A stretch of DNA of 37,558 nt from Myxococcota bacterium (GTDB lineage: Bacteria; Myxococcota_A; Polyangia; Nannocystales; Nannocystaceae), in NCBI GenBank assembly GCA_039028615.1, contig JBCCHT010000070.1, forward strand, positions 1-37,558. Direction: 5' to 3'. Of the stretch, positions 9,875 to 32,777 are shown piece by piece. The notes below the pieces were generated by a model that was given only the letters and a program-made list of their open reading frames with translations, was not told where the DNA came from and made no database searches. Numbering within the stretch: the stretch's first letter is position 1; each line of letters starts with the position of its first letter. The translations under genes were made by a program, and so were the position numbers.

Positions 9875-11395
9875 TCAGACGTCTTTGAGCGCGATCCGTG
9901 CCGCGTTGTACCCACACATCCCATGCACGCCGGCCCCGGGATGGGCGTAGCTGGAGCAGAGATACAGCCGATCGACGGGCATCCGATAGCGGAAATACGG
10001 AAACGCGGGCCGGAACAACAGCTGGCGGTACCACGCGTTCGAGCCTCCGCCGAGATCACCCCCGACGAGGTTGGCATCCATGGCCTCGAGATCGGGCGGT
10101 GCCACCACGGCGCGATCGATGATCGTGTCCCGAAACCCAGGCGCCAGCCCTTCGATGCGTTCTTCGACCCGATCGGCAAACGACTGGGCATGGGCCGACC
10201 ACCCTCCGTCGGGCAGTTTGGGTGGCACGCGAGAGTAGGTCCACAGGGTGTGTTGCCCGTCGGGCGCCCGGGTGGGATCGGCGAGGGTCTGCTGACCCAG
10301 GACGAGATACGGATTGTCGGGCAGCTCGCCGCGCCGCACCTGAGCGGTGAACTGCGAGAGATCCTCGAGGCTGTCCCCGGCATGCACGACCGCGCTGCGC
10401 CGCGCCTCGTCCACTGCCCAGGGCACGGGCTCACGAAGCGCCCAGTCCATCTTGAAGGCACCCCAGCCTCGCGGATACCGCTGGGCCATCTTCACGAGCC
10501 GACTCGGGATGTACTGCCGGTCGACCAGGTGCAGCCACAGGGCACTGGCGTCGGTGTTGGCGAGCACGGCCTGCCGGGCCTGAATCTCCTGGCCATCGGC
10601 GAGCCGCACCGCACTCGCTCGGCCGTCCCGCACGATGATCTCGTCCACCCGCGCGCCGAGCCGAATCTCGCCGCCGTGCAGCTCGAGCACCTTCACCAGC
10701 GTGTCGGCGATCGACTGCGCTCCGCCTTCGGGTACGACGTAGCCGCCCGTGGTGGCGGTCATGCCCAGCATGAAGCCCAGCGCAGCACCGAACCAATCGT
10801 CGGGACCGACGTCGACGTGCAGGGCGAGTCCGGGCAGCACCCGTCGGGCGGCTTCGCTGTCGAACCATCGCTTGGCCAGGCCCTTGCCGCGCGACAGGAA
10901 CACGGAGGCGACCTTCAGCAGGTTCACGGGCAGAAGCCGCAGCATGGGGCGCACCGCGGGGAAGGTCTCCATGAGCATCGGCAGCAGGTGCGGCTCGATG
11001 CGTCCGTACCAGGAGGCAATCCGCCGCCAGGTGTCGCCATCTTTGGCGCTACCGAAGTGCTTGGCGGAGACGTCGTGGTCGCGGCTGATGCAGGCGAAGG
11101 TGCCGTCGGGCGCGGGGTGACAGCTCTCGAACTCCGAGCCGCACCAGCGCAGACCGTGCTGGGTCAGGTCGAGCTCTCGGAACGCGGGGCTCAAGGTGCC
11201 CCAGGGGAAGAACGCGGCGCCCACGTCGTGCACGAAGCCGGGGCGAGTGCTCTGCACCGAACCCACCGCGCCGCCAGGGCGGTCGGGGTTGGCCTCGAGG
11301 ACGAGCGTCTTCAGTCCCGCCTTGGCGAGCACACAGGCGGCCACCAGCCCGTTGGGGCCCGATCCAATGACAATCGCGTCGGGATCGCCGTTCAT
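9875..11395 (-). CDS. FAD-dependent oxidoreductase, phytoene-dehydrogenase-like family
   Basis: DAIVIGSGPNGL FAD motif; PEGGAQSIAD; C-terminal LYLCSSYAHPGAGVHGMCGYNAA. Confidence 0.92.
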   Translation of the reverse strand: MNGDPDAIVIGSGPNGLVAACVLAKAGLKTLVLEANPDRPGGAVGSVQSTRPGFVHDVGAAFFPWGTLSPAFRELDLTQHGLRWCGSEFESCHPAPDGTFACISRDHDVSAKHFGSAKDGDTWRRIASWYGRIEPHLLPMLMETFPAVRPMLRLLPVNLLKVASVFLSRGKGLAKRWFDSEAARRVLPGLALHVDVGPDDWFGAALGFMLGMTATTGGYVVPEGGAQSIADTLVKVLELHGGEIRLGARVDEIIVRDGRASAVRLADGQEIQARQAVLANTDASALWLHLVDRQYIPSRLVKMAQRYPRGWGAFKMDWALREPVPWAVDEARRSAVVHAGDSLEDLSQFTAQVRRGELPDNPYLVLGQQTLADPTRAPDGQHTLWTYSRVPPKLPDGGWSAHAQSFADRVEERIEGLAPGFRDTIIDRAVVAPPDLEAMDANLVGGDLGGGSNAWYRQLLFRPAFPYFRYRMPVDRLYLCSSYAHPGAGVHGMCGYNAARIALKDV

Positions 11396-11432
11396 TCGCG
11401 GCGACCCTACCACGGCGCCCGCGGGTGCTCGC

Positions 11433-12161
11433 TCAGGTCATCTGATCGAGGTACTTGGGCAGCATCTCGCGCCAGGTCGGCCAGTCGTGGTCGTAGTCGG
11501 TGCCCCAGGGATCGACGCGGTTGGGCACGCCCATTCCGCCGAGCATGTTGGCGACGCGCCAGCTCTCGGCCGGACTCTCCCAGCGTCCCTCGCCGGTCGC
11601 GAGCAGCACGAAGCGCTCACGCAGCAGGGCCAGCTGCGGGCTCTCGCCGAGGCCGGGTAAGAAGTGCAGCGGCGAGCAGTAGTGGAAGTCGAGGGGATGC
11701 TCGCCGTTCATCCACCGCGACAGGTCGTAGGTGCCGCTCATGCAGATCGCCGAGCGGAACACGTCGGGGTGACGGCAGATCGCCGCGAGTGCATTGAACG
11801 CGCCGATCGACGCGCCCGCGGTGACGACCTCGATGTCGGGTGTCTTGCAGTCGGTGCGAATGGCGGGCACGAGCTCGTCGATGACGAAGCGATCGAAGGC
11901 GTTTTGGATCCGCGCCCGAAAAGCACCCGAGCTCGCGCCGTCGGTCCAGATGCGCCCCGCGACGCTGTCGCAGGTGTAGATCTTGACGCGACCCGCTTCG
12001 ATGAGAGGCATGAGCGCGTCGATCATCAAGAAGCGCTCGCACTCTTCGGCGTCACCGCCCGCAGTGGGAAAGAGCAGCACGGGCAGGCCGTAGTGACCCC
12101 AGCGTGCGACGAGCACCTCGGTGTTGAGATGCGGGGAGTACCAGCGGTTGGTGAGCTTCAC
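11433..12161 (-). CDS. Esterase family alpha/beta hydrolase (COG4947-like)
   Basis: WGHYGLPVLLFPTAGG, GASIG nucleophile, MSGTYD, HDWPTW. Confidence 0.88.
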   Translation of the reverse strand: MKLTNRWYSPHLNTEVLVARWGHYGLPVLLFPTAGGDAEECERFLMIDALMPLIEAGRVKIYTCDSVAGRIWTDGASSGAFRARIQNAFDRFVIDELVPAIRTDCKTPDIEVVTAGASIGAFNALAAICRHPDVFRSAICMSGTYDLSRWMNGEHPLDFHYCSPLHFLPGLGESPQLALLRERFVLLATGEGRWESPAESWRVANMLGGMGVPNRVDPWGTDYDHDWPTWREMLPKYLDQMT

Positions 12162-12376
12162 GGTCTTGGGCCGGAGTCTACATTCCCCGTGGCGTCGATC
12201 CGTGCACCCGGTGCGTCTTTTCGCTCAATTCGATGATCACCGGAACCGGCGCTGCCGCGCATCGGGGACCGGTCCGAGAACCGGACTCGGCCTGCCGCCA
12301 CGGTGTCCGATTCTCCGCATGGGCGTGCGTTCATTGGGCGCCATGGGCGTTGGGGCCTCGTGCTAGCCTTCGTGTC

Positions 12377-13723
12377 ATGCGACGGTGTTCGATCTTATTC
12401 TTAGGCTGCGTTCTCCCCGCGGGGTGCTTCAACCCGGGGACGGTCAACGATACGGACACCAACGGCAGCAGCGGGACTTCGGCGGTCGAGCCCTCGAGCG
12501 GTGGCCTCTCCACCACGGGGACGCCACCGGACACGATGACGGACTCGCCGACCGACTCGGGTGAGGAGACCACCACCACGATGGGGGTCGACCCGGACTC
12601 GTCGTCGGGCGACGACGCCACGACGGGGCCACCCCCGATGTGCGGCGACGGCAATGCCGATCCGGGCGAGTTGTGCTTCGGCGATCCTCCCGAGATCTAC
12701 CCCACGGGGGACGAGCCCTACGATCTGGCGATCGCCGACATCGACAGTGACGACGTGCTCGACATCCTGACGCTGAGCTACACCAACGACTTGCTGTCGA
12801 TCCTCGAGAGCGACGGGATCGGCGGGTTCACGCCCCCGTCCAACTACGACGGCGGCGGGAATCCGCATCGGGTGCGCACGGCCGACTTCGACGGCGATGG
12901 CGACAGCGACATCGTGATCGCGGGAGGCCAGCTGGTCACGTACTGGAATCAGTCGGGCTCGTTGGTGCAGCGCATCGAGCCGGGCGGCTTCGGAGGCAGC
13001 TTCGGCATCAACAGCATGGAGGTCATGGAGGGCAACGGCGACGAGGTGCCCGACATCGTCTACACGCAGGCCTACGACTTCCAGTTCGCGGCGGGCACCA
13101 TCGTCAGCAGCCGCTGGGCGCTCATCAACTCGGGCAGCATCATCAATGCGGGCGAAGGGGCGTCGGGGATCTGGGCCACCGAGTTTGCCTGGGACTCGGA
13201 CAGCGACGCGGACGTGATCGGGGTCAACCAGTACTACTCGGACGCGTTCATCACCACGGGCAACGGCGACGGCAGCTTCAACGAGGTGCACGAGCACCAG
13301 GTCTGCCCGGGGCGCTTCGCGGGGGCCCGCCACGTGATCACCGACGACTTCGACGGCGATGGCTCGCAGGACATCGTGGTCACGTGCATGGACGGAGACT
13401 TCACGGTGAGCCTGGGGACGGGCGCGATGGCGTGGAACGACCACACCATCTACTCGCTCGACGGGGCCCATCGTCCCTATGCCTACGACATCGACGACGA
13501 TGGCGACCCCGACTTGCTGGTGGCGACCTCGACCCTCAACCGGGTCGCGCTGTACATCAACGACGGGTCGGGGAGCTTCACGTTCAGCGAGCTCGAGTTC
13601 CTGACCAACGGCTCGCCCTACGGGGTCGAGGTCGCCGATCTCAACGGAGACGGCGGGCCCGACATCATCACCACGTACCAGGACGGCACGGGGCAGGTGA
13701 TGGTCTGGTACTCGAACCCGTAG
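12377..13723 (+). CDS. FG-GAP/VCBS-repeat lipoprotein with Ser/Thr-rich linker and a myxobacterial Cys-rich repeat
   Basis: Lipobox-like LPAG-C; CGDGNADPGELC; repeated DFDGDGxxD / DLNGDGGPD calcium-blade motifs. Confidence 0.88.
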   Translation: MRRCSILFLGCVLPAGCFNPGTVNDTDTNGSSGTSAVEPSSGGLSTTGTPPDTMTDSPTDSGEETTTTMGVDPDSSSGDDATTGPPPMCGDGNADPGELCFGDPPEIYPTGDEPYDLAIADIDSDDVLDILTLSYTNDLLSILESDGIGGFTPPSNYDGGGNPHRVRTADFDGDGDSDIVIAGGQLVTYWNQSGSLVQRIEPGGFGGSFGINSMEVMEGNGDEVPDIVYTQAYDFQFAAGTIVSSRWALINSGSIINAGEGASGIWATEFAWDSDSDADVIGVNQYYSDAFITTGNGDGSFNEVHEHQVCPGRFAGARHVITDDFDGDGSQDIVVTCMDGDFTVSLGTGAMAWNDHTIYSLDGAHRPYAYDIDDDGDPDLLVATSTLNRVALYINDGSGSFTFSELEFLTNGSPYGVEVADLNGDGGPDIITTYQDGTGQVMVWYSNP

Positions 13724-13735
13724 GCGACGCGGGCG

Positions 13736-14935
13736 TCACTCCAGCTTGACGAGGAAGGCGCCCGCCTCGTCGCTGCCGCTGACGTAGGCGTGACACTCGG
13801 CGTCGGTGGCCAGATCGAGGCCCCAGAAGCCGTCCATGCTGGTCTCGGCCAGCACGTCTCCGCCCGCGGTGATCCGCTGGACGAGGATCGGGTCGTCGGG
13901 GAAGGCTCGGCCCAAGACCACGAGGTTGCCGTTGGCGTCGACGTCGACTTGCACCGCGCCGTAGTCGAGCTCGATCGCCTCGAGGAAGGCCCCGTCGGCC
14001 CCGAAGTGGTCGAGGCGACCCGCGCTGCCCTTGCCGGGGAGGATGGAGAGCCAGGCCCCGCCCGCGCCGTCGGCCGCCACGCCGTGTGCCGTCTCGAAGC
14101 CCTCTGCGCTCGACTCCACGATCCACTCGATGGCGCCGTCGGGGCCGATACGAGCCAGCAGGGGGCCCCCGGCGTTGCTATGGCCGGCGACGAAGTAGCC
14201 ATCCGCCCCGTCGTTGGTGGCGTCGAAGACGTGCTCGTCGCCGCCGTGATCGTACGAGTCCGAGGCGGACCCGGCTGCGCCGCTCAGGATCAGGTCGACG
14301 AGGAGGTCGTCGTTGCTGCCACCGAACAGGACGTCGCCGTTGGGGCCGATGGCGGTGCCGCCCGCATCGACGGCGCCCGAGATCCCGGGGCTCTCGAACT
14401 GCAGCTGGCCCGCGTCATCGAAGATCTGCAGGATGGCGGTGCCCGTGGTGCGGTCGGTGCCCACGAACGAAGTGACCGACCCGGTGGCGATGTCGTGCTG
14501 GCGCAGCGCACCCTCGCCTCCAGTGGTCAGAGCGTCGGCGGACCACTGCTCGTTGCCGTCGAGGTCGTGCACCCGAATGCGAGTGGCGGGATCCCAGGTG
14601 GTCGCGACCCAGGCGACGCGGCCCTCGGCGACCGAGACGGACTCGCCGCGATCGCGCTCCGGGTCGTCGATGCGCCACAGCTCGGCGAGGGAGCCCGGCT
14701 CCCCGCAGGGCCCGGTGGGGGGCGGCTCGCCCGTGGAGGTGCCGACGGTCGGAGAACCCGTGTCGGAGTCGGGATCGACGGTGTCCTCGGGGTCGGTGGT
14801 CGAGCCCGAGTCGACGCCGTCGGTCACCGCATCGGTGTCGCTCTCGCCGAGCTCACCCTCGACGGTCGGCCCACATGCGGCGGCACAGGCCGCCAGGGCC
14901 AGGAGCAAGGAGTTCGACTGGATAAGGCAATGCAT
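13736..14935 (-). CDS. Lipoprotein with acidic Thr/Ser linker and beta-propeller-like repeats
   Basis: LAACAAA-C lipobox; repeats like VAADGAGGAWL, VDVDANGNLVVLG, LATDAECHAYVSG. Confidence 0.75.
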   Translation of the reverse strand: MHCLIQSNSLLLALAACAAACGPTVEGELGESDTDAVTDGVDSGSTTDPEDTVDPDSDTGSPTVGTSTGEPPPTGPCGEPGSLAELWRIDDPERDRGESVSVAEGRVAWVATTWDPATRIRVHDLDGNEQWSADALTTGGEGALRQHDIATGSVTSFVGTDRTTGTAILQIFDDAGQLQFESPGISGAVDAGGTAIGPNGDVLFGGSNDDLLVDLILSGAAGSASDSYDHGGDEHVFDATNDGADGYFVAGHSNAGGPLLARIGPDGAIEWIVESSAEGFETAHGVAADGAGGAWLSILPGKGSAGRLDHFGADGAFLEAIELDYGAVQVDVDANGNLVVLGRAFPDDPILVQRITAGGDVLAETSMDGFWGLDLATDAECHAYVSGSDEAGAFLVKLE

Positions 14936-15085
14936 GCCTATACAGTGCTCAACGAGCCCAGATCGACCGCTTCGTCGGCGAAGTTTTTTCGAGATCCCCG
15001 AGATCGTTGACGAATTGCGAAGCCGCGATCTGCCCCGCGGGCGCGTTGTGAGCGCTCGTTGGCACGCCGGGTGTCGCCGCTGCGC

Positions 15086-16396
15086 TCAGGCGGGCGGGAC
15101 CTGGTCGGGCGAACCGTCGGGGCTGCCTTCGCCTTTGCCGAGCCGGTCGGCCTCGGTCTTGCGCCAGAACTGGATGAGCCCCCAAAAGTGCTCGGTGAAG
15201 CGCTCGACCTCGTGCTCGGGGAACAGGGCCTGCACCTTGGCGAGCACGTGGCCCTTGGCCTGCGGCGTGCCGAAGAACTCCCACACGACCTCGTTGAGGT
15301 GGCTCAGGTGCGTGTGGCAGAACTCGGTGAAGCGATCCTGGTCGAGGCGCTTGCGGGCGATGGCCGCGTACTCGGCCAGGCGCTCGCGGTAGGGCAGGTC
15401 CTTTTTGGCGACGGCGTAAAAGGGCTCCCAGTCGAGGTTCTGCGGCATGGTGCGCTGGGTGGCGGCGCAGTAGAGCGACCACCGCACCATGTTCTTCACC
15501 ATCTCGGGGAAGTGGTAGTGCAGCGAGGTGACCTGGAAGTCGGGGCACGCGTTGGCGAAGTCGATGGGATGGAAGGTGCCGTTTTTGCGCAGCGACTCGC
15601 AGGAGTTGAACTCCCAGCCGAAGAACGCGTTGATGGTCAGCGCGGTGTCGGTGAGCAGCGACCACTCGTCGGAATCGACGAAGTGGAAGTCGACCTTGTA
15701 GCGGTCGTGCAGGGGCGCGCCGGGGTCGTAGCGCACGATGTGGACCTGGGGCCCGATGCCGATGGCGCGCACGAACAGGTCGAAGGGGTCGACCGCCTTT
15801 TGCAGGTGCATGACCCGGCTGCCGCTGTTTTCGTAGGCCTCGCGCAGCTTGGCTTCGTCGTCGATCTTCGACACGCCGACCCATGCCCCGCCGTCGTAGG
15901 GCTTCATGAACATGGGGTAGCCGAGCTTCTCTCCCACCGCGCCCAGGTCGAAGAGCCGGGCGTAGCGCTCGAGGGTCGTGCCGACGTCGTCGTGCTCGAC
16001 GTGCTCCTTGGGCGGGATGAGCAGGGTGTCGGGCACGGGCATGCCCAGCTTCATCATCGCGCAGTAGGAGGTGTGCTTCTCCATGGACTGCAGCGACCAC
16101 GGATTGTTGAGCACGTAGAGCCCGTCCATGATGACCGCCTTCTTGATCCACTCGCGGCTGGTGTGGAACCAGTGCGTGAGGCGGTCGAGGACGACGTCGT
16201 AGCGGCAGGGCTGGGTGAGCGTGAAGGGCTCGACGGTGACCCGCTCCACATGGAAGCGCACCAGCTCGTCGCCGATGGGCATCGCGGGCTTGAGCCGGTC
16301 GATGATCTGCTCGTAGCAGGCGGGCCAACAAAGGTCGGCCCCCAGTGAGAGTCCGATGGTGCGGGTGACCTCGGTGCGCGCGGGCATGGGGCTCAT
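15086..16396 (-). CDS. ATP-grasp ligase (RimK/glutathione-synthetase-like)
   Basis: GMPVPDT, GYPMFMKPYDGGAWVGVSKI, LQKAV, EFNSCE..PIDFANACPD. ATG 16396 overlaps the upstream stop (ATGA). Confidence 0.88.
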   Translation of the reverse strand: MSPMPARTEVTRTIGLSLGADLCWPACYEQIIDRLKPAMPIGDELVRFHVERVTVEPFTLTQPCRYDVVLDRLTHWFHTSREWIKKAVIMDGLYVLNNPWSLQSMEKHTSYCAMMKLGMPVPDTLLIPPKEHVEHDDVGTTLERYARLFDLGAVGEKLGYPMFMKPYDGGAWVGVSKIDDEAKLREAYENSGSRVMHLQKAVDPFDLFVRAIGIGPQVHIVRYDPGAPLHDRYKVDFHFVDSDEWSLLTDTALTINAFFGWEFNSCESLRKNGTFHPIDFANACPDFQVTSLHYHFPEMVKNMVRWSLYCAATQRTMPQNLDWEPFYAVAKKDLPYRERLAEYAAIARKRLDQDRFTEFCHTHLSHLNEVVWEFFGTPQAKGHVLAKVQALFPEHEVERFTEHFWGLIQFWRKTEADRLGKGEGSPDGSPDQVPPA

Positions 16397-17529
16397 TCGT
16401 AAACCATCCACAGTGGCCCGGGGAACAGGTAGGACAGCCCGGCCTGCATTCGATCGCGCCAGTTTTCCCAATTGTGACCGTCGCGGACCCACTCGTACCG
16501 GCAGTCCATGCCCGTGGTCTGCAAAAGCGGCACCAGGGACCGGTTTTCGTAGATCAGGGACTCGTACATCCCGCAGCTGAGGTAGACCTGCTCGCTGGGC
16601 CGGCCGGGGGCGTCCCGAAATGCATTGACGAACTCGACCACGCGGTCGAAGGCGGGCCCGCGCTTGTGATTGCCGATGTCGGTGAAGGCGAACGAGCCCG
16701 ATTGCAGCAGCAGGCGGCCGAACTTGCCCGGATGGCGCCAGGCGGTGGACAGCGAGGCGACCGCGCCGAAACTGGCCCCCATCAGGCCGCGGGTGGCGGG
16801 CGCGGGCATCAGCGGGTAGCGCTCCTCCATGGCGGGCAACACGTGCTCGGCCAGGAACGCGGCATGCCGGGGGTCGTCGGGGTACTCGATCATGCGGTCG
16901 CCCGGGTGGGTGAGCGCGGCGATGACGGGCGCGACCTCCAGGCGATGGATGAGGTTGTCGAGGATCTCCTTGAGCGCGGCGTAGCGCAGGTAGTCCCCGC
17001 CGTCGTGCACGATGAGCAGCGGGTAGCGGCGCGTAGGGCGGAATCGCGCGGGGAGATAGACGCTGACCCGACGGGGCTCCCCGAAGGGCGTCTCGGTCAG
17101 CCACAGGTCCTCGATGTGCCCCGGTCGGCTCTCGGGATCGGCGAAGGTCCAGTGGGGGCGCTCGTAGCCCGAGCCCGAGCACACCGAGTTGGCGCCGAAG
17201 GGGTCCTGGGCCAGGTGCGGGTTGAAGGGGTCGCGGATCCACTCGTGGTGGTCGCCGCGAACGATCTCCAGCTTGTACTCCACCCGCGAGCCGGGCGGCA
17301 TCTCGTGCACGTGGTACCAGAGGTCGGTGTCGTGCACGCGGGTGAAGGGCTGCGACGACTCGAGGCCGTAGATCCAGTGCCGCAGGTTCACCGCGTCGGC
17401 GTGGCCCCGAAACACGAAGGTGGCGCGGTCGCCCTCGATGAGGGGGAACGAGCGCTCGCGGATGAAGCCGCTGATCGCCTCGTGGTCGGGCGTGCCGCCG
17501 TCGAGCAGGTCGTGGATCGCGAGTCTCAC
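16393..17529 (-). CDS. Fes-like esterase with N-terminal E-set/CBM48-like domain
   Basis: ATFVFRG..DTDLWY..RVEYKL..DPFNP N-domain; VYLPA..YPLLIVHDG; GASFG nucleophile; GHNWENW. GTG 17529 overlaps the upstream TGA. Confidence 0.88.
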   Translation of the reverse strand: MRLAIHDLLDGGTPDHEAISGFIRERSFPLIEGDRATFVFRGHADAVNLRHWIYGLESSQPFTRVHDTDLWYHVHEMPPGSRVEYKLEIVRGDHHEWIRDPFNPHLAQDPFGANSVCSGSGYERPHWTFADPESRPGHIEDLWLTETPFGEPRRVSVYLPARFRPTRRYPLLIVHDGGDYLRYAALKEILDNLIHRLEVAPVIAALTHPGDRMIEYPDDPRHAAFLAEHVLPAMEERYPLMPAPATRGLMGASFGAVASLSTAWRHPGKFGRLLLQSGSFAFTDIGNHKRGPAFDRVVEFVNAFRDAPGRPSEQVYLSCGMYESLIYENRSLVPLLQTTGMDCRYEWVRDGHNWENWRDRMQAGLSYLFPGPLWMVYE

Positions 17530-18467
17530 GAGGCGGTGTCCTCCATGGGCACGACCTCGCCCGTGTAGGTGAGCTGGCGAGAGCGGGCGGCGTAGTTGCG
17601 GCCGTCCCACGACACTCGCTCGCCGCGATCGAGGGTGACGCAGCGGTCGGGCTTGAAGCGACGGGCGAACAGCGAGACCCGCTCCGCGTCGTCGAGCTGC
17701 AGCCGCTGTTTGGCGTGTGGTAGGACCACCAGCCCCGGCACGATGCCCAGGCCCTCGCCCAGCAGCTCTGCGTTGCCCTTGCCCTGCGGCGGGTTGTCGT
17801 GGAAGAGCACGACCCGCTCCGAGATCGCCATGGCGCCCGCCGACCACGCGAAGATGGGCAGCGGGCGGGGTAAGGAGGTCAGCAGGCGGTCGAACTGAAA
17901 CAGCCGCAGGCGGTTGAGCAGCGACGCGACGTGACCCCCTGCGATCAGCAGGCCGAAGCAGTTGCCCAAGATGGTCCGCAGCTCGCGATAGTGGTGGTCG
18001 ACCGCGGGCCGAGCGGTGGGGCGGTAGTGCAGCTCGAAGTCGCGCTGGATCTGCCGGGTGCGGCCCAGGTGCTGCTTGTCGACCAAGCGCAGCGCCAAGA
18101 TGGCCGCGTCGCGCTCCGTCTCGATGAGCTGCGGCGGCGCCGTGGACTGACGCATCTCACGGGCGGCATCGAGGGCGTGAGCCAGGCGACGGCGGTACAG
18201 CACCTGGCTGTGGCGCAGGTTGTCTTGCTTGGCGCGGTGGGCCGCGAACAGGTCGGGGTCGCGGGAGAAGACGTCGTCGCTCCGCCAATGTAAGCGCAGG
18301 TTCACGATCGGCATGCCGAGGTGATCCCGCAGCTCGCGGTCTTCCGCCTCGCGCTCCTGCCACCCCGCGGTGATCGTGGCCAAGGGCCCGGGGACCCCGA
18401 AGCGGGACAGCTCCTCGCGGATCGATGGTTGGTGCCGCTGAGGGCCGAGCAAGACGCCGAGGGTCAT
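17526..18467 (-). CDS. Peptidase S51 family (peptidase E/cyanophycinase-like, class I GATase fold)
   Basis: LLIAGGH, AWSAGAM (Ser nucleophile), GLGIVPGLVVLPH (His). Confidence 0.8.
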   Translation of the reverse strand: MTLGVLLGPQRHQPSIREELSRFGVPGPLATITAGWQEREAEDRELRDHLGMPIVNLRLHWRSDDVFSRDPDLFAAHRAKQDNLRHSQVLYRRRLAHALDAAREMRQSTAPPQLIETERDAAILALRLVDKQHLGRTRQIQRDFELHYRPTARPAVDHHYRELRTILGNCFGLLIAGGHVASLLNRLRLFQFDRLLTSLPRPLPIFAWSAGAMAISERVVLFHDNPPQGKGNAELLGEGLGIVPGLVVLPHAKQRLQLDDAERVSLFARRFKPDRCVTLDRGERVSWDGRNYAARSRQLTYTGEVVPMEDTAS

Positions 18468-18571
18468 GACGAAAGAGGTCCGGGTGGCTTGTCGGCAAAC
18501 CGCCGCGCGGCTACAAGGGCCTCGCCTTTTAGCCAACCCGCCTTGGCTGGGGCAAGGGAGCTTGGTTCGTC

Positions 18572-19792
18572 ATGCACGTGCTGTTCGTTGCGCCGCACTT
18601 TCCCGCGTACCAGCGGCAATTCGTTCGGGCCCTGACCTCGGTCGGAGCCCGGGTCACGGGGATCGGCGAGGCCGATCCGGCCCATCTTCCCGGCGAAATC
18701 CGCTCCCAGCTCCACGGGTACGAGCAGGTGAGCAACGTTTGCGACGAGCAGGCGTTGCTCGACGCGGTGCGCCGAGTGCAGGGCCGGGAGTGGGTCGATC
18801 GCCTGGAGGCGACCATCGAGGCCCACATCCTGCCGACAGCGCGGGTGCGCGAGCACGCCACCATCCCGGGTCTGTCGACTCACGCCGCCCTGCTGTGCCG
18901 CGACAAGCCCATGATGAAGGAGTTCTTGCGCAAGCACGGGGTGCCCTGCGCTCGCTCCACCGGGGCCGAGTCCGTCGACGAGGTCGAACAATTCGTACGT
19001 GAGGTCGGCTACCCGATCATCCTCAAGCCGCGCGACGGCGCGGGGGCCTCGGGCACCTACCGCGTGAGCAATGACGCCGAGCTGGGGGCGGCTCTGCGTG
19101 AGCTGGGCGTCGGTCCGGGTCGTTCCGTTGCGCTCGAGGAGTTCATCGAGGGCCACGAGGGCTTCTACGACACCCTATGCGTCGGTGGTCAGGTCGTGCA
19201 CGAGTTCGTCTCGCACTACTACCCCAACGTCCTCGAGGCCATGCGCACCCGCTGGATCTCGCCGCAGATCGTCGTGACCAACCGCCTCGACGAGCCTGGC
19301 TACGACGAGGTCAAGCGCCTCGGCCGCGACGTGATCACCGCCATGGGCCTGCCCACCGTGGCCACCCACATGGAGTGGTTTTACGGCCCCAAGGGCCTCA
19401 AGTTCTCCGAGATCGGCGCGCGACCGCCCGGCGTCGGGCAGTGGGATCTGTACTGCGCGGCCAACGAGATCGACCTGTACCGCGAGTGGGCCCACGCGAT
19501 CGTGCACGGCTGTGGCTCGCAGGTCGCGTCGCGCAAGTACTCGGCGGGGATCATCGCGCTGCGGCCCGAGGCCGACGGGCAGATCCGTGGCTACTCGGGG
19601 GTCGACGAGCTGCAGGCGAAGTTTGGGCAGTGGGTCATCGACTCGCACCTGCCCCCGCCCGGCACGCCCACGCAGCCCGTCGAAGCGGGCTACATGGCCA
19701 ATGCCTGGGTACGGCTCAAGCATCCCGACTACGACACGCTCCGCGAGATGCTCGATACGGTGGGGAAGACCATCACCGTGCACGCGGGCTGA
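18572..19792 (+). CDS. ATP-grasp domain protein (carboxylate-amine/L-amino-acid ligase-like)
   Basis: RDKPMMKE, GYPIILKPRDGAGA, EEFIEG, HMEWF, FSEIGARPPG. Confidence 0.92.
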   Translation: MHVLFVAPHFPAYQRQFVRALTSVGARVTGIGEADPAHLPGEIRSQLHGYEQVSNVCDEQALLDAVRRVQGREWVDRLEATIEAHILPTARVREHATIPGLSTHAALLCRDKPMMKEFLRKHGVPCARSTGAESVDEVEQFVREVGYPIILKPRDGAGASGTYRVSNDAELGAALRELGVGPGRSVALEEFIEGHEGFYDTLCVGGQVVHEFVSHYYPNVLEAMRTRWISPQIVVTNRLDEPGYDEVKRLGRDVITAMGLPTVATHMEWFYGPKGLKFSEIGARPPGVGQWDLYCAANEIDLYREWAHAIVHGCGSQVASRKYSAGIIALRPEADGQIRGYSGVDELQAKFGQWVIDSHLPPPGTPTQPVEAGYMANAWVRLKHPDYDTLREMLDTVGKTITVHAG

Positions 19793-19829: not shown

Positions 19830-20345
19830 TTACTTCGCTCGAGTGAATTTCGCCGTACCGACTACGATGCCGATCTGTAGGTTGAGGCCCGCGCCGACCA
19901 ACGCTCCGAGTACCCCGACGTTCTTCTTGAAGAATGTCATCCGCGTCGCGGCGGGGCTTGTCGCGAGTTCGAACCCCACTTCGCCGAGCATCCGGTCAGG
20001 ATGGACCATCTTTCCGATCGTCCACACGACCCCTCCTCCGAGCGCGGCTCCCCATGCGGTCCCCGTGAAGTTCCTCTTGCCGATGACCTCGCCATCTCGT
20101 TTGAAGATGACCGGCGTATTGGAGTAGACCCGGGTCCAAACGAAAGCGGATGCGATGGCCAGCTGAGCCGTGACCGTGTACATGGTCGCGAGTTTGGCCG
20201 GAGGCTCGGTGAGGAGTGCGGCCAGCTCTGGGCTCTCGTGCCGCCCTCGTTCTTGATGCTCGAACTGGTGCTCGAGCGTCTTTTGGGCGATGAGCGCATA
20301 GGCGTTGGATTCGTCCTGAGTTGGTTCGATGACGTGATCTGACAT
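19830..20345 (-). CDS. Putative VapA/VapB-like (Rhodococcus equi virulence-associated) beta-barrel protein
   Basis: C-terminal ~115 aa YTV..IASAFV..FTGTAWG..GGGVVW..FF..LG..GAG...G...G follows the Vap core pattern as recalled from memory. Alternative TTG start at 20375 overlaps the upstream stop. Confidence 0.6.
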   Translation of the reverse strand: MSDHVIEPTQDESNAYALIAQKTLEHQFEHQERGRHESPELAALLTEPPAKLATMYTVTAQLAIASAFVWTRVYSNTPVIFKRDGEVIGKRNFTGTAWGAALGGGVVWTIGKMVHPDRMLGEVGFELATSPAATRMTFFKKNVGVLGALVGAGLNLQIGIVVGTAKFTRAK

Positions 20346-20371
20346 GTTTTTCTCGTACGTTGGTTCGAGGT

Positions 20372-21154
20372 TCAACGGTTCGTCTGAGACTCTGCTCGCT
20401 GTTCGGTATCTGGCCGGGCGCTCGGCGGGTCGAAGTAACCGATGCTGCTGGGGCCCTTGAAAAGGGTGGGAGTGTTTCCGAGCGCGAAACCCATGCCCAC
20501 GAAGCAGCTAAAGGAAGAGAGCTGCTTGTGTTTGTTGTATGTGACGCTCAGCCCGAAGTGGCCATGCCCCAAGTGGTTGGAGATCGTGTATCCGTATTCT
20601 TGCTCCGGCTCGTCCTCACGGTCTGGGAACCGGACGAAGAAGACTCGCTCGATGACCGCCGCTACTTTCATCGAGCCACCACCGATTATGCGGTCGAAGT
20701 GGTACCAGCCGGGCTTACCACCCCGTTCGAAAAGGCCTACGCCGCGAGAGACTCCGATCCCCGCTTGGAGCTCCGTGGCGATGCCGAACCCGGTAGCTAC
20801 GATGGGGGACTTGCAGTGGACGATGTTCGTGCCGCGCTCTTTGCAGAATCTACGGTGTAGCCTGACCGCCTTCTCGTCGTACTTCTTGTTGAAGAAGCTC
20901 CTTCGGTGGCTCTGGACATCGGCGACGTAGTGGCGCATTCCTCCCGACCGCGCGTAGATGAACTGCTGGAGGAAGCCTGCGTAGTCTCGGTGGAACTCCT
21001 CGTACTGGTCTCTATACTCCGAGCCGTCGATGCACTTTCTGGCGAATTCGGCTGGGTTTTCCATGTCCCAGCCGTCGAATGAAACGTCGCCCGACCGAAT
21101 CTTCTGAATCTGGTCTTCATAGGAGGGGAACTCGGTCAGAGAAGAGTCGGTCAT
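20372..21154 (-). CDS. Hypothetical protein, helical N-half and Gly-rich beta-strand C-half
   Basis: 260-aa ORF with a GAGGA RBS upstream, normal amino-acid composition and lower-GC codons. No family recognised. Confidence 0.7.
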   Translation of the reverse strand: MTDSSLTEFPSYEDQIQKIRSGDVSFDGWDMENPAEFARKCIDGSEYRDQYEEFHRDYAGFLQQFIYARSGGMRHYVADVQSHRRSFFNKKYDEKAVRLHRRFCKERGTNIVHCKSPIVATGFGIATELQAGIGVSRGVGLFERGGKPGWYHFDRIIGGGSMKVAAVIERVFFVRFPDREDEPEQEYGYTISNHLGHGHFGLSVTYNKHKQLSSFSCFVGMGFALGNTPTLFKGPSSIGYFDPPSARPDTEQRAESQTNR

Positions 21155-21252: not shown

Positions 21253-21879
21253 TCATTGCTCCCAGTAGCCGCGTAGGGACTCGGCCCACTCGTCCATCCG
21301 ATCGACGGTGGAGCTGAGTTCCTCAGGGGTCGACGCGAGCTTCTCGATCGCCTCGAGCAGCTGGGCCTTGGCGCGACGTAGGCGGCCGCGGACGGCGGGC
21401 AGCGTCTCGCCGAGGACCTCGGCGATCTGCGGGGCCTTCATCGGCTCCCAGTAGTACATCTCCAGTACGACCTGGGAGTCGATGGGGATGTGCCGCAGGG
21501 CGGTGAGCAGGAGCTGTTGCTCTCGCCGCGCTCGGACGGCGGAGCTGACTCCCATGCCGCAGTCGACGACGGAGACGCCGTCGGACTCGAAGCTCTCGGT
21601 GTTTCGTCGATCCCGAAGGTGCTTGAGCAGGGTGTTGCGGGCGATTGCGAACAGGAAGGTTCGGAAGCTCGCGTCTCCGCGAAACTTGGCGCGGGCCTCC
21701 ACGGCGGCGGTCATCGTCTGCTGTACGAGATCTTCGACGTCTCCCATGCTCGAGAGCTTGTTGCCGAAGAATCGGTACAAGGACGAGAAGTGGCGCTCCA
21801 GCAGGAGGCTGCCCGCTCGACGGTTGCCTTCACCCCATTGCTCGAGGAGAGTCCGATCGTCCACCACGAGATCATACAA
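21253..21879 (-). CDS. ECF sigma-70 factor (Ser/Thr-kinase-associated type)
   Basis: EDLVQQT, FRTFLFAIARN (region 2); IAEVLG..VRGRLRRAK (region 4). Start may be GTG 21867 or 21864. Confidence 0.92.
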   Translation of the reverse strand: MYDLVVDDRTLLEQWGEGNRRAGSLLLERHFSSLYRFFGNKLSSMGDVEDLVQQTMTAAVEARAKFRGDASFRTFLFAIARNTLLKHLRDRRNTESFESDGVSVVDCGMGVSSAVRARREQQLLLTALRHIPIDSQVVLEMYYWEPMKAPQIAEVLGETLPAVRGRLRRAKAQLLEAIEKLASTPEELSSTVDRMDEWAESLRGYWEQ

Positions 21880-22025
21880 GTGGGTTCGGGTGGGTTTGCG
21901 CGAGAACGAGCGCCGGACAGAAAACGGGCTCTAGACGCCCGTATTCGGCCTCTGGTTGCTATCGTGGGTCGTATTGGCTGAACGGTGGAACTACAGAATC
22001 GTTCACGCGAAGGACACGACCGAAG

Positions 22026-22460
22026 ATGAGCAACGAGAGCCAACAGACGACTTTCAAGGATCCGCCGCACCTGTTCGTACGCCTCAAAGGCGGCAAGGGT
22101 GAGTGGTTCTTTCGTGACGCAGGTGGGGGATCCGTGCACTTGCAGAGTCATGATCTGACGATCGAGCACGGCAAGGTGGAGAAGGACATTCAGGATTTTT
22201 CGCTGACGATCCTCAACGAACTCCACGAGACGATCACCCTGGAGGTCAAAGGGGAGGGGCCGGCGACGGTGGTTGCCCCGGAAAAAAAGGACGTCCCCGC
22301 CGGAACTCGGGTCACCTGGGAGTGCAAGACGGGCGGAGGAGAGCCGCACGGGGAGCAGCAACGTGCAACGTGGACGATCCTCCCCCCAAACGTCGGCGTC
22401 AAAGTGGAGGACCCGACGTTCCGGGTTCGTTGGCAGGCAGGCGTGGGCCCCGATCTATAG
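22026..22460 (+). CDS. Hypothetical beta-rich protein with C-terminal 'DP' motif
   Basis: ATG 22026 after AAGGA; 144 aa with normal composition; ends VEDPTFRVRW. Its stop abuts the kinase stop in CTATAG. Confidence 0.62.
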   Translation: MSNESQQTTFKDPPHLFVRLKGGKGEWFFRDAGGGSVHLQSHDLTIEHGKVEKDIQDFSLTILNELHETITLEVKGEGPATVVAPEKKDVPAGTRVTWECKTGGGEPHGEQQRATWTILPPNVGVKVEDPTFRVRWQAGVGPDL

Positions 22461-25241
22461 GCTCTGTAGCCACTGCTTCACCTCGGTGGCTCGCTCGGGC
22501 AGGCCGAGCCGTTCGAAGTCGTTGCCGGCCTGTCGCGCGAGTTCCTTTGCCCGGGAGGTTTGCGTCTCATCGGACGCCGCCAGGGCCTGCGCGAGAGAGA
22601 AGCGGATGTCCGCAATCTCGTGGGGTTCTCGCCCGACCTCGAGCTGCAGCGCGAGGGCACGTTCCAGGTCGCCCACGGCTTCCGCGGCTCGGCCGGCCTT
22701 CAGCGTGACCTGGGCGCGGCCCTTGAGCGGCAAGGCGAGATCGGGATGGTTTTTGGGGAGGCTCTGCTCGTAGATCTCGAGGGCCTTGGCGAAGCTGGCT
22801 CGGGCCTCCTCGAGCCGATCCAACGCGGCCTGGGACTCGCCGATGTTGCTATGGAGCCGACCCAGGGTCGGGTTGTCCGGTTGGAGCGTATCCCGGGCGA
22901 TCTTCAGCGCCCGCCGATAGGCGTCGATCGAACCCGGCAGGTCGCCCGTGAAGAACAGCAGCACGCCCTGGGCTTCGTGCAGCTCGGCCATGTGCTCGTG
23001 ATCGGACCCGAGTTCGCGTTCGTAGACGTCGAGGGCGTGGGCGATCGAGGTCAAGGCGGGCCCGAAGTCACCGTTGGCCATGTCGACCTTGGCTCGGGCG
23101 TAGCGAACCCGGGCAGCGCGGAAGGAGTCGCTCCCGAACGCAACCTCGTAGATCGACTCGGCGCGGTCGAGCTGCGCTCGTGCTTGCTCGAAGTCTCCGG
23201 TCTCGAGGGCCAGGACGGCCAGGTCGAAGGTGTAGTGCCCGACCAGCGGTGCCTGGGTGCCCCACCGCTGCGCGGCTCGGTCCCGGCCCATTTGCAGGAG
23301 ATCGCGCGCTTCGTCGAAGCGCCCCAGTCGACCCAGCGTGACCGCGACGTGCCAACGCTCTCGTTCGCCCCGGGCTTCGTCGCCTCGCTCGTCGGCGAGG
23401 CGCTGCGCCTCGCGAAACCCATCGAGTGCGGCTTCGAACGAACGATCGTGCAGCAAGAGCGATGCCTGGGCGTGTCGGACCGCGGCCAGCAGCGGCTCGT
23501 TCGGGCGGCCCAGTCGGCGGACCACGGTCTGCGCTTGCTCGACGACGAAACGCTCGAGTCGAGGCGATGACCAGCGGGCGGCCGATGCCGCGGCGGCCTC
23601 GACCCACAGCCGGGCGGCGAGTTCATCGAGTTGTCGGGCTTCGGCGTCGCGGGCCAGTTCGATGAGTCGAGGCACGCCCTCGTCGACGCGTCCTCGCTGG
23701 ATCTCGAGCTGGGCCGGAAAGGCCTTCAGCTCGAGGTTCAGGGGAGCGTAGGGCGTGGGGTCGACCTCGGCGACGACGGATTGCGCTCGCTCCAGGGCTC
23801 CGGTCGTGGCCAGAGCACGAGCTTCGGCGAGACGATCGTAGCCGGCCGAGATCGCCTCACGCTCGGGCCCCGGCTCGGGCAGGGGATCGCCCTCCGAGAG
23901 TCGTTGGCCGTCGGCACACGCGGAGAGATCGGGAAGGCGAGCCAGCAGCTCCGGGCCGTGCGTGGCCAGCTGTGGGGCGAACGTCGGCGTCGAGAGGGTG
24001 TCGAGAGTGATCTGCACGACCCGACGCCGCTGCTCGAGGCACTCGCGACGAAGGTCGAGCGTTCGCTCCGACTCGATCCCGTCGACGCGGGCGGCGACAC
24101 AAGACACCCGCCGAGCCTCGTGCCAACCCGTCGCCCAGTCGTCGAGCCCACGCTCGATGGAGGCCACGGCGACTTGGTCGGCGAGGAGCTCTCGCAGCGA
24201 CTGTCTGCGTTCGTCGTCCCAGGTCCCGGCGAGCGCATCGTCCTCGAAGGCACACGGCGCGATCGCTTCGTCCTCGGTTTGCAGGGCAGGCACAGCCACC
24301 CCCGCGACGACAGCCGCAAACCCGGCCATGCCCAGCAACGAGCGCCACCGAGCCGGCCTGGGGGCGACGGCGGCTTCGAGTTCGGCCAGCAGCTCGCCGA
24401 CGGACGGGAAGCGCTCCTTCGGGTCTTCGGACACCCCTCGCAGCAAGATCCGGCGGACCTCGTCGGGCAGGTTTCGCCCCGGGTCGACCTTCGGTGGCAG
24501 CTGTCCACACAACGATTCCCACAGGCTCACGCACCAGGCGTATTGATCCGCTGCCGCGTCGACCCCTGCGTCGTGGCGTTGCTCGGGCGCGGCGTAGCGA
24601 TGGGTCCCGACGAACCCTTCCGCCTCCTCGTCCGGCTCGGTCGAGTCGCCTTGCACGAGGCCGAAGTCGATCACGCGGGCTCGCCCGTCGTCGCCGATGA
24701 GCACGTTGCTCGGCTTGATGTCTCGGTGCACGAGCCCGGCGTCGTGGGCCGCTTGCAGGCCGCGGCCCGCGGCGATCCAGTGGTGCAGGATCGCCTCGTC
24801 GTGTGGCCGAGGATCCTGGGTCAGCCAGTCCTGCATGGTGGTGCCGGGCACCAGCTCGATGGCGATCCACACCCGCTGCTGCTCGATGCCCGTTTCGAAC
24901 ACGGTCACGACATTCGGATGCGCGAGCTTGGCCAGGCTCCGGGCCTCGGTGGCGGCGCGCTGGCGGAGCGACGAGCCGACGCCGCGGGTCTCCACGAGCT
25001 TGATCGCGACCAGTCGCTCGAGCTGCGGATCCCACGCTCGATAGACCACGCCCATGCCGCCCTGGCCGATGCGCTCTCGGAGTTCGAACCGGCCGAAGCG
25101 CGGCGGCGGCGAGTCGCGTTCGAACATCCGCGCCATCACGCGGCTGCGGATCAGCTGGCCGTCCACGCTATCGGGGCCGATGTCCGCGAGCGCGGCGTCC
25201 ACTCGACCGTGGCCGATGTCCGACTCGTCTCGTTCGGCCAC
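22455..25241 (-). CDS. Hanks-type Ser/Thr protein kinase with TM segment and C-terminal TPR repeats
   Basis: IGQGGMGVVY, VAIK, HRDIKPSN, DFG, GTHRYAAPE; TM LLGMAGFAAVVAGVAV; TPRs such as LHSNIGESQAALDRLEEARASFAKALEIYE. Start estimated at GTG 25241. Confidence 0.92.
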   Translation of the reverse strand: MAERDESDIGHGRVDAALADIGPDSVDGQLIRSRVMARMFERDSPPPRFGRFELRERIGQGGMGVVYRAWDPQLERLVAIKLVETRGVGSSLRQRAATEARSLAKLAHPNVVTVFETGIEQQRVWIAIELVPGTTMQDWLTQDPRPHDEAILHHWIAAGRGLQAAHDAGLVHRDIKPSNVLIGDDGRARVIDFGLVQGDSTEPDEEAEGFVGTHRYAAPEQRHDAGVDAAADQYAWCVSLWESLCGQLPPKVDPGRNLPDEVRRILLRGVSEDPKERFPSVGELLAELEAAVAPRPARWRSLLGMAGFAAVVAGVAVPALQTEDEAIAPCAFEDDALAGTWDDERRQSLRELLADQVAVASIERGLDDWATGWHEARRVSCVAARVDGIESERTLDLRRECLEQRRRVVQITLDTLSTPTFAPQLATHGPELLARLPDLSACADGQRLSEGDPLPEPGPEREAISAGYDRLAEARALATTGALERAQSVVAEVDPTPYAPLNLELKAFPAQLEIQRGRVDEGVPRLIELARDAEARQLDELAARLWVEAAAASAARWSSPRLERFVVEQAQTVVRRLGRPNEPLLAAVRHAQASLLLHDRSFEAALDGFREAQRLADERGDEARGERERWHVAVTLGRLGRFDEARDLLQMGRDRAAQRWGTQAPLVGHYTFDLAVLALETGDFEQARAQLDRAESIYEVAFGSDSFRAARVRYARAKVDMANGDFGPALTSIAHALDVYERELGSDHEHMAELHEAQGVLLFFTGDLPGSIDAYRRALKIARDTLQPDNPTLGRLHSNIGESQAALDRLEEARASFAKALEIYEQSLPKNHPDLALPLKGRAQVTLKAGRAAEAVGDLERALALQLEVGREPHEIADIRFSLAQALAASDETQTSRAKELARQAGNDFERLGLPERATEVKQWLQSL

Positions 25242-25364
25242 ACCCGATTCTAGCGCAGAGCCGCGCCAATCGGAGCGGGGGGGCAGAGGCCGACCACGCC
25301 CGGTTTGCGCGGATTCGAGCGATGCATGGCCACTGGGCGCGAGCGGTGCTACGTCGTCGCGTTC

Positions 25365-26339
25365 ATGACTTACTCCAAGACGAGCGCGGTGATCTGTGCA
25401 TCGGCCGCGTTGTTCCTGCTCGGCTGCCCCAGCGACGACACCACGGACACCGGAGGCCAAGGAAGCTCGACCGGCACCGGGGTCGGCAGCGGTGATACTT
25501 CGAGCACGCCGAGCGCCACGACCACGGGTACGCCTTCGGGCGACACCACGGCGGGCACCCAGGGCGGTACGACCACGGGCGAGGACACGACCGCGGGCGG
25601 AGGCACGACGGGGTCGAGTTCCGGCGACGACGGCACGACGGGCTCATCGACGGACTCGAGCTCGAGCGATGACGGCATGGGCTCGTCGACGGACTCGAGC
25701 TCGAGCGACGACGGCATGGGCTCGTCCAGCGGCGAGAGCTCGGGGTCTTCGGGGAGCACGGGCGATCCCGGTGACCCCTGCGACGGCGCCGAGGTCTTGC
25801 TGTACGAGCAAACCCCGGTGGTCGGGGCCCTCGAGGGCGGCCCGGCGGGGATCGGCGCGGGCGGCTTCATCCGCAGTGCCGACGACTTCGAGGTCGATGC
25901 GGCCGACCAGTGCTGGTGTGTGACCCGAGTCGTGCTCCCGGGCTCCTACGTCGATGCGATGCTCACGGGCGACCTCGAGGTGGGCTTTTACGAGGACGCC
26001 CCGGGCGTCCCCGTCAATCCCGCCATCGCCATCGAGTCCGGCGTGCCCACGGATGTCGCGGGGGTCTTCGACTACACGCTCGCGAACCCGGTGGTGCTGC
26101 CTGCCGACACGTACTGGCTGTCGGCGATGCCGGAGATTGCGAGCATCGACCTGGGCATCTGGTTCTGGGCGCCCGGTACGACCATGGAGGGAAGCTCGTG
26201 GGCAATGGAGACGACCTTCGCTCCCTTCGTACCCGCGTGCTCGAACTGGACCGGAGGCTCGACGTGCTTCCCCGCCGGTTCGGCCGCGGACCTGGCGTTC
26301 GAGATCCACGGGGTGGTCGGGGGCGACTCCTGCATGTGA
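25365..26339 (+). CDS. Lipoprotein with Ser/Thr/Gly-rich linker and C-terminal beta-sandwich (ADDF...TYWLS) domain
   Basis: Lipobox LFLLG-C; low-complexity linker; RSADDF and LPADTYWLS motifs typical of extracellular domains. Confidence 0.78.
   Translation: MTYSKTSAVICASAALFLLGCPSDDTTDTGGQGSSTGTGVGSGDTSSTPSATTTGTPSGDTTAGTQGGTTTGEDTTAGGGTTGSSSGDDGTTGSSTDSSSSDDGMGSSTDSSSSDDGMGSSSGESSGSSGSTGDPGDPCDGAEVLLYEQTPVVGALEGGPAGIGAGGFIRSADDFEVDAADQCWCVTRVVLPGSYVDAMLTGDLEVGFYEDAPGVPVNPAIAIESGVPTDVAGVFDYTLANPVVLPADTYWLSAMPEIASIDLGIWFWAPGTTMEGSSWAMETTFAPFVPACSNWTGGSTCFPAGSAADLAFEIHGVVGGDSCM
25641..25726 (+). repeat. Intragenic 39-bp tandem repeat (2 copies plus a partial), encoding GSSTDSSSSDDGM
   Basis: ggctcatcgacggactcgagctcgagcgatgacggcatg followed by ggctcgtcgacggactcgagctcgagcgacgacggcatg (2 synonymous differences). 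Confidence 0.9.
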
Positions 26340-28847: not shown

Positions 28848-28951
28848 ACGCCACCTGCACCTCGGCGAGCGGGTCGAGCCCAAACCAACGCGCGTGTCAC
28901 CCCCCGATCGAGGGGCGGTGATTGTCGTGCCGATCACCCACTGTGGTGATC

Positions 28952-32530: not shown

Positions 32531-32777
32531 CGGGGTTCGCTCTCGATGCTGCGACCCCGGCTCGGGACGCTGGGTGTCGGTGGATGGCGGTGCCCGAAAT
32601 CACGCATCGGGGCGGGAGAGAGGCAATTGTGGGTCATGGCGCGAGCCAGGGCGCTGCGGCGGCGGGCATCGAAACACCGAAGTCGGCGTCGACGCAAGGG
32701 AGGGCACGTCCGTGGCACGGCGGCAACCAGTGCTTTTTTCGCACGGGCGGACCGTGGGAAGATGGGGCTTCATCGTG

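Follow-up and report, generated by a model that had tools for sequence, protein, structure and literature searches.

INTRODUCTION

In the cyanophycin system (CphA1/CphA2, CphB and CphZ), ATP-grasp enzymes and an S51-fold protein, sometimes joined by an M14 hydrolase, act in a storage context. A similar combination is found in the DNA analyzed here, a contig of 37,558 nucleotides from a Myxococcota bacterium of the Nannocystaceae (assembly GCA_039028615.1, contig JBCCHT010000070.1; the whole stretch is called the window below), where positions 11433 to 19792 hold the genes of two ATP-grasp ligases (ligase A and ligase B), two esterases (EstA and EstB) and an S51-like protein. A sequence-only reading of this module had proposed a pathway independent of nonribosomal peptide synthetases that builds and recycles a small peptide, a polyamide or an aminoacylated carbohydrate, by analogy to cyanophycin synthetase and cyanophycinase. 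The idea of a co-conserved ligase/hydrolase system stood up to our analysis, but the cyanophycin analogy did not, because no CphA was found, the cyanophycinase motifs are absent, the catalytic His is often lost and the S51-like gene is missing from the minimal form of the module. The module also differs from the cyanophycin system in its two esterases and several separate ligases, and in an S51-like protein whose triad has decayed and which carries a helical insertion of 110 residues. In a search for CphA (ATP-grasp plus Mur-ligase domains, about 870 amino acids) with TIGR02068, which had no positive control, as no control genome passed the cut-off, the best match in the genome reached 124 bits against a cut-off of 850 bits and none spanned both domains; ligase B itself scored 41 bits.

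Other described systems resemble single parts of the module. GabtS (Rv1722), an ATP-grasp enzyme, joins gamma-aminobutyric acid (GABA) to a trehalose hydroxyl through an ester, and the product has been proposed as a carbon and nitrogen reservoir (bioRxiv 10.64898/2026.04.15.718621). Its transfer of an amino acid carboxylate onto an alpha-glucoside hydroxyl is the chemistry that we propose for the module; however, GabtS is a single enzyme with trehalose as its substrate, and its main text, in the accessible part, mentions neither an esterase nor glycogen (bioRxiv 10.64898/2026.04.15.718621). RizA and BacD are the best sequence matches of ligase B in the PDB and share its catalytic residues, whereas in our module three to five paralogues are kept together with esterases and glycogen genes and not in an antibiotic cluster. 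The fold of ligase A is that of RimK and of LysX and ArgX, which work with LysW (Z 18-19), but identity is 14-17%, ligase A has an extra helical tail of 100 residues, no carrier gene was seen, and its metal motif shows what we take to be a Glu-to-Asp swap relative to RimK. EstA shares the architecture of an immunoglobulin (Ig)-like domain followed by a PF00756 hydrolase with Fes and with CBM48-CE1 esterases; it is not a member of the Fes equivalog (78.8 bits against the NCBIfam cut-off of 222), its context is neither that of xylan nor that of siderophores, and it has a conserved YE tail and an S51-like partner. Finally, pseudo-CphB (PDB 7UQV) also has the S51 fold and was deposited under the label of a pseudo-enzyme; it is only 11-12% identical to the S51-like protein of the module and has cyanophycinase-type motifs.

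No described system matching the whole module was found in the literature searched, which consisted of listings and the beginnings of abstracts and lay mostly outside subscription papers, so that an earlier in silico description is possible. Iyer et al. 2009 (Mol Biosyst, on amidoligases) reportedly may have predicted such neighbourhoods in silico. The accessible part of PMC2922099 contains no description of the module.

RESULTS

Conservation and forms of the module

GTDB was scanned with ligase A as the query, the best 80 of at least 579 relatives were kept as loci, and neighbours were counted by tblastn within 10 kb or up to the contig end. By label, these loci belong to Myxococcota (57), Planctomycetota (7), Acidobacteriota (6), Pseudomonadota (3), Eiseniibacteriota (2), Binatota (1) and Actinomycetota (1), with three unlabelled. 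EstA was found in 66 loci, EstB in 61, the S51-like gene in 59 and ligase B in 45, and three types of B paralogue lie near ligase A in 43, 19 and 17 loci. EstB adjoins ligase A in 59 of the 62 loci with both. Because the same set recurs across the 80 loci, the clustering of these genes is not a matter of chance, and these loci, together with the literature searched, bear out the statement of the sequence-only reading that such neighbourhoods recur across phyla without a known product.

In a sample of 121 genomes of the phylum, ligase A, the S51-like gene, ligase B and EstB were counted genome-wide. An orthologue of ligase A (E below 1e-190) is present in 27 genomes, with distant copies in four more. 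All 27 also have the S51-like gene, ligase B and EstB, with two to six B-type matches each, and each of these three genes occurs in 28 of the 121 genomes, namely the 27 and G094 (94% complete), the only other genome with all three. The presence of the four genes is therefore nearly all-or-none. Failure of the five genes to co-occur elsewhere had been named as what would speak against a common pathway; both the neighbourhood and the genome counts clearly gave the opposite result.

Among Actinomycetota, 31 of 251 genomes carry ligase A, a count that includes three unpublished genomes (G126, G173 and G245) left out of all later counts, which use 28. The loci fetched (20 of the 28) contain EstB in 18 cases and an EstA-like gene in 17, but S51 and B ligases in one; genome-wide, S51 is found in 2/28 and B ligases in 3/28. 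Because the actinobacterial loci mostly lack S51 and B ligases, the minimal unit consists of ligase A and the two esterases. This three-gene form is that of the Actinomycetota, and the locus in the window is an expanded form.

Several variants were seen in passing. L084 (G010:C36) and L087 (G077:C1) hold a distant variant with ligase A homologues of about 310 amino acids (two copies in L084) and EstB, together with a YbdK-type GCS2, a class I amidotransferase-like protein, an unclassified open reading frame (ORF) of 420 amino acids and a subtilase. Long distant homologues of ligase A (26-36% identity) at L085, L086, L088 and L089, in G043 and G001, have no detected module gene nearby. In one Nannocystis record (L024:8782-9913 and 11615-12324), EstA and EstB are interrupted as if by frameshifts, as is ligase B at L056; these breaks are likely sequencing errors.

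Association with glycogen synthesis

A glgA gene above the cut-off is present in all 27 module genomes, compared with 45 of the 80 module-free genomes examined (out of 89). Within families f19 and f29, glgA occurs in 3/3 genomes with the module and 0/4 without it. In Actinomycetota, CBM48 genes of branching/debranching type were found in 28/28 module-bearing genomes versus 31/80 controls (80 of 220 examined, of unstated completeness), or 30/65 when controls of at least 2.3 Mb are counted. Glycogen genes also stand near ligase A in some of the 80 loci (glgA in 21, glgB in 4, glgP in 3). Among the genomes searched, the module is thus confined to glycogen makers in two phyla.

EstA and EstB

The core member EstA (16393-17529, minus strand; 378 amino acids) combines an Ig-like N-domain with a Fes/CE1-like serine hydrolase (S253, E323 or E328, H352), and its closest structures are Fes and CBM48-CE1 esterases. 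EstB (11433-12161, minus strand), also a core member, is a PF00756 serine hydrolase of 242 amino acids with S118, H225 and, as the likely acid, E195; we presume that it belongs to COG4947, as labelled earlier. The motifs WSAG/PH, GASFG/GHNW and GASIG/HDW are present in the translations. The earlier statement that the catalytic motifs are intact holds for the esterases, in which Ser and His of both triads are invariant among the homologues aligned, but not for the S51 triad, which is degenerate.

The N-domain of EstA (17164-17454, minus strand) is CBM20/CBM48-like: the best PDB match of its profile is the CBM20 of A. niger glucoamylase (1ac0, E 5e-4). W71, K86 and W97 of EstA align with W563, K578 and W590 of that domain, which, together with W543, are described as starch-binding residues of CBM20 in the accessible part of PMC9920598. 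Among EstA homologues, the K578 equivalent is kept in 46/46, the W563 equivalent in 45/46 and the W590 equivalent in 41/46; the W543 equivalent is likely W52 (W in 36 and F in 9 of 46), outside the hidden Markov model alignment. From this conservation, the domain is predicted to bind alpha-glucan. The hydrolases that are always present are of esterase families and have invariant triads, whereas the peptidase-like one is either degenerate or missing, a pattern that fits an ester product better than an amide.

The S51-like protein and the EstA tail

The S51-like protein (17526-18467, minus strand; 313 amino acids) begins, in all likelihood, with the ATG at 18467, a longer TTG start at 18536 being unlikely. 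Its model (predicted local distance difference test [pLDDT] score of 93) shows an S51 fold with a long helical hairpin inserted at about residues 59-168. Foldseek returned PepE, pseudo-CphB (second) and CphB as the top matches (E 3e-6 to 3e-5), and with PF03575 over its cut-off (E 5e-6) the S51 (class I amidotransferase-like) fold is assigned. PepE depends on Ser120, His157 and Glu192, and its relative MccG no longer protects once the His is replaced by Ala (PMC9239234). The window copy keeps S209 and H251 and has an Arg at the acid position 281, as placed by sequence against PepE, with D280 adjoining. Across homologues (150 representatives at 50% clustering), His is lost in 52/147 and Ser in 15/147, and both are kept in 91/147; the triad with an acid at 281 is complete in 47/146, or in 84/147 if an acid at 280 is also accepted. 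The cyanophycinase motifs GGDQ and DQH, read from 7uqv, occur in none of the 150 homologues, and the window copy has GGHV and LPH instead. A cyanophycinase role was rejected on account of these absent motifs and the degenerate triad.

The S51-like gene lies directly before EstA in 59/59 loci; of 150 proteins, three are fusions of the two, including one that lacks the His. EstA ends in a tail, PGPLWMVYE-stop (16396-16422, minus strand), that is a predicted docking element: YE closes the protein in 60/62 loci and in 120/120 top homologues, with YD in 2/6 distant copies. In Actinomycetota, the YE tail is present in both genomes with S51 and absent from 17/17 EstA-like proteins of S51-free genomes. 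Among these, only L079 counts as an independent tail loss, because the other 16 proteins form a more distant subfamily; L079 has a true EstA orthologue, which ends at FPG without the tail, and keeps three B ligases with no S51. A counter-case is L076, where S51 is present and the EstA tail reads WETYL. The invariant position before EstA, the occasional fusion and the tracking of the tail with S51 presence suggest that the S51-like protein is likely a docking partner of EstA, non-catalytic or weakly catalytic. A stand-alone S51-like paralogue with the helical insertion, unlinked to the module, was seen at L090-L092, with Ser-His-Glu intact in all three copies read.

The ligases and accessory genes

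Ligase A (15086-16396, minus strand; 436 amino acids) is a core member with a RimK/ArgX-like fold and a helical C-terminal extension. The residues K107, K165, R210, R232, E267, D279 and N282 are conserved. Its model (pLDDT 86) gives tied fold scores for RimK (Z 19.0), synapsin (18.7), ITPK1 (18.5) and ArgX (18.2), and the superposition on RimK, with a root mean square deviation of 3.0 over 265 aligned residues, places it in the RimK-type fold.

Ligase B (18572-19792, plus strand; 406 amino acids) is L-amino-acid-ligase-like, matching RizA (E 1e-21) ahead of BacD (E 4e-14), and has the Lal-type fold and its catalytic residues. K112, K152, E196, H266, E268, E280 and R284 are invariant, with exceptions in some of the four paralogue groups, and each type has distinct conserved loop residues. 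The source genome has three other paralogues, at C7:6707, C8:163988 and C51:71063. The divergent orientation of ligase B noted earlier is real here, across an intergenic region of 104 bp (18468-18571) from the S51-like gene, but is lineage-specific, with 21/45 loci divergent and 24/45 on the same strand as the core. No sigma-70 consensus match was found in this intergenic region, where that consensus is uninformative for this organism.

The accessory neighbours in the 80 loci are GCS2-CBS (25), M14 of AstE/AspA type (10) and FGase (6); in the source genome, GCS2-CBS, M14 and glgA/glgB are all on other contigs. A GCS2/YbdK-type ligase, which the sequence-only reading had suspected to be missing, proved to be accessory: GCS2-CBS is found in 11 of the 27 module genomes and in 21 others. 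The copy at G000:C13:218302-220218 (L082) is a GCS2-like ligase fused to two CBS domains, a type present in 32 of 121 genomes and split into a module-linked and an unlinked clade. In a midpoint-rooted tree of 30 rows, the source copy falls among those without linkage to the module and is separated (support 98/96) from the 22 linked ones, and it was rejected as the missing member. The GCS2-CBS gene often adjoins the M14 gene.

Gene layout and flanking genes

All five ORFs claimed for the module were found and are open, and the 4-bp overlaps GTGA (17526-17529) and ATGA (16393-16396) were confirmed. Pfam assigns PF00756 to EstA and EstB, PF03575 to the S51-like protein and ATP-grasp families to ligase B; Pfam and NCBIfam matches are at superfamily level, all equivalog cut-offs being missed, and relatives in the ESM Atlas carry the names "hypothetical" or "putative ATP-grasp". 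The five proteins are likely cytoplasmic, because a crude scan found no strongly hydrophobic stretch in them.

EstB lies 2.9 kb from ligase A. Between them is a convergent insertion of an FG-GAP repeat protein gene (12233-13723, plus strand) and an ORF of 399 amino acids without a Pfam match (13736-14935, minus strand), both with lipoprotein-like low-complexity N-termini. Because two genes intervene, one on the opposite strand, EstB is not co-transcribed with ligase A here. Both were rejected as module members (0/80 loci), as was a CrtO/phytoene-desaturase-like FAD oxidoreductase (0/80; 9875-11413, minus strand) located 19 bp downstream of EstB; L084 has a distant homologue of this oxidoreductase (24% identity) next to its EstB homologue.

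Farther out, 19830-21154 (minus strand) holds two ORFs without a Pfam match and with a G+C content of 0.59-0.62 versus about 0.68, and 21253-25460 (minus strand) an extracytoplasmic function sigma factor behind a Ser/Thr kinase-TPR gene. At 28922-30307 (plus strand) lies the gene of an endoribonuclease of the XendoU family (E 1e-51) that also has a lamin-tail-like domain, and at 32166-35729 (plus strand) a second kinase-TPR gene. The sigma factor and the two kinase-TPR genes are of a kind common in myxobacteria.

DISCUSSION

Glycogen, the commonest carbon store of bacteria, is generally regarded as a plain glucose polymer. Because the obligatory hydrolases are esterases, the module is nested in glycogen makers and EstA has a domain resembling a glucan-binding site, the best reading, which we advance tentatively, is that the module reversibly esterifies amino acids or short peptides onto alpha-glucan (glycogen or malto-oligosaccharides) in an ATP-driven reaction. 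Among the products offered by the sequence-only reading, the glycogen link and the N-domain of EstA, which is of starch-binding type, speak most for the third, an aminoacylated carbohydrate. The residues that bind ATP, metal and carboxylate are retained in ligase A and in the three to five B-type ligases; by the chemistry of their family, these enzymes would make aminoacyl-phosphates and assemble a small acyl unit, which could pass to a sugar hydroxyl either directly, in the way of GABA-trehalose synthetase, or by means of a serine acyl-enzyme. EstA, with its putative alpha-glucan-binding domain, and EstB would load and unload this unit, and the S51-like protein would dock on the YE tail as a binder or regulator rather than as a recycling peptidase. 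The purpose would likely be the storage of nitrogen or overflow acids on the glycogen granule, or regulated access to the granule.

A number of points weigh against this. Its chemistry is wholly inference, and the B ligases are nearest to L-amino acid ligases, which form amides. The CBM match of EstA is weak (E 5e-4, with no Pfam match), Fes carries a similar N-domain without a glucan role, and the site is without its Lys and Trp in 16 triad-type EstA-like proteins of Actinomycetota and in L114. Related CBM48 domains on CE1 esterases failed to bind starch, according to the accessible part of PMC8040265. Of 20 actinobacterial loci, only two have a glycogen gene alongside (one glgA-like, one glgB), and the source genome has its glgA and glgB on another contig than the module. 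The p-values of the glycogen co-occurrence (3e-6) are overstated, because related genomes are not independent, and a shared lifestyle or regulon could explain the dependence on glycogen.

Only slightly less probable is that the product is a free small peptide or polyamide, as the sequence-only reading had it. It would serve to store nitrogen or as a compatible solute, be synthesized and drawn upon together with glycogen, and be recycled by the hydrolases, the accessory M14 enzyme and FGase. The B ligases, closest to RizA and BacD, fit such a product, and three to five distinct B paralogues per genome would suit stepwise assembly. The accessory GCS2-CBS, M14 and FGase are amide enzymes, and M14 acts in cyanophycin breakdown, according to the accessible part of PMC9974463. 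The S51 evidence cuts both ways: Ser and His are retained together by most homologues, the window copy included, but less than a third have a complete triad and the gene is nearly absent from the actinobacterial module genomes. Moreover, the hydrolases that are obligatory are esterases, a free peptide leaves the starch-site residues of EstA unexplained, and no polymerase-type CphA was found.

We consider it unlikely that the glycogen link is incidental, with the module making or salvaging another ester or amide metabolite such as a stress solute, a lipid or a cell-envelope adduct. The weak local linkage and the lost CBM residues in the actinobacterial triad agree with this, as does the L084 variant with its YbdK-type GCS2, amidotransferase-like protein and subtilase and no glycogen gene nearby; however, the counts across whole genomes place the module inside glycogen makers in two phyla, and glgA adjacency recurs across several phyla, both of which speak for a genuine association.

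Modification of a protein by RimK-type tailing or on a carrier, reversed by the hydrolases, appears still less probable. The target might be a glycogen enzyme, or the C-terminal Glu of EstA in the manner of LysW, since ligase A is closest in fold to RimK and to ArgX/LysX and the YE at the end of EstA is free-standing and almost invariant. Yet the tail is lacking in all 17 EstA-like proteins without S51, although ligase A is kept (in L079 along with three B ligases), so an obligatory LysW-type carrier role of the tail was rejected, and the tail is YD in two of six distant copies. Among the conserved neighbours, a clustering of ORFs of at least 80 amino acids, subject to imperfect gene calling, showed no family of small acidic carriers.

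That ligase A is an ITPK1-like polyol or glucan kinase phosphorylating glycogen or a sugar, with the rest handling the product, is very improbable: ITPK1 ties with RimK in fold score and the metal motif IDFANxCP has an Asp, presumably as in ITPK1, where RimK has a Glu, but R210 and R232 are, on equivalences that we assume, ligase-type Arg residues, no phosphatase was found among the conserved neighbours, and the esterases and amino-acid-ligase paralogues would be left unaccounted for.

Returning to esterification of alpha-glucan, a wider and more speculative formulation, to which we give little more than a minor share of belief, is that in many bacteria amino acids or short peptides are attached covalently and reversibly to glycogen by four to six ATP-grasp ligases together with an esterase docked on the glycogen, and that an S51 pseudo-peptidase keeps this esterase in a complex by gripping its YE tail. 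If this is true, the result would be a combined carbon-nitrogen store or a glycogen modification code with no described counterpart, and it would bring new ester- or amide-forming ligases and an S51 pseudo-enzyme serving as a docking subunit. The module is open to direct testing in cultured carriers of the genera Nannocystis and Paraliomyxa (L009, L023-L027) and through the three-gene form of the Actinomycetota. It occurs in about a fifth of the sampled genomes of the phylum and an eighth of the sampled Actinomycetota, and its constant nesting in glycogen makers suggests that carbon storage in bacteria of soil and sediment is linked to chemistry not yet described.

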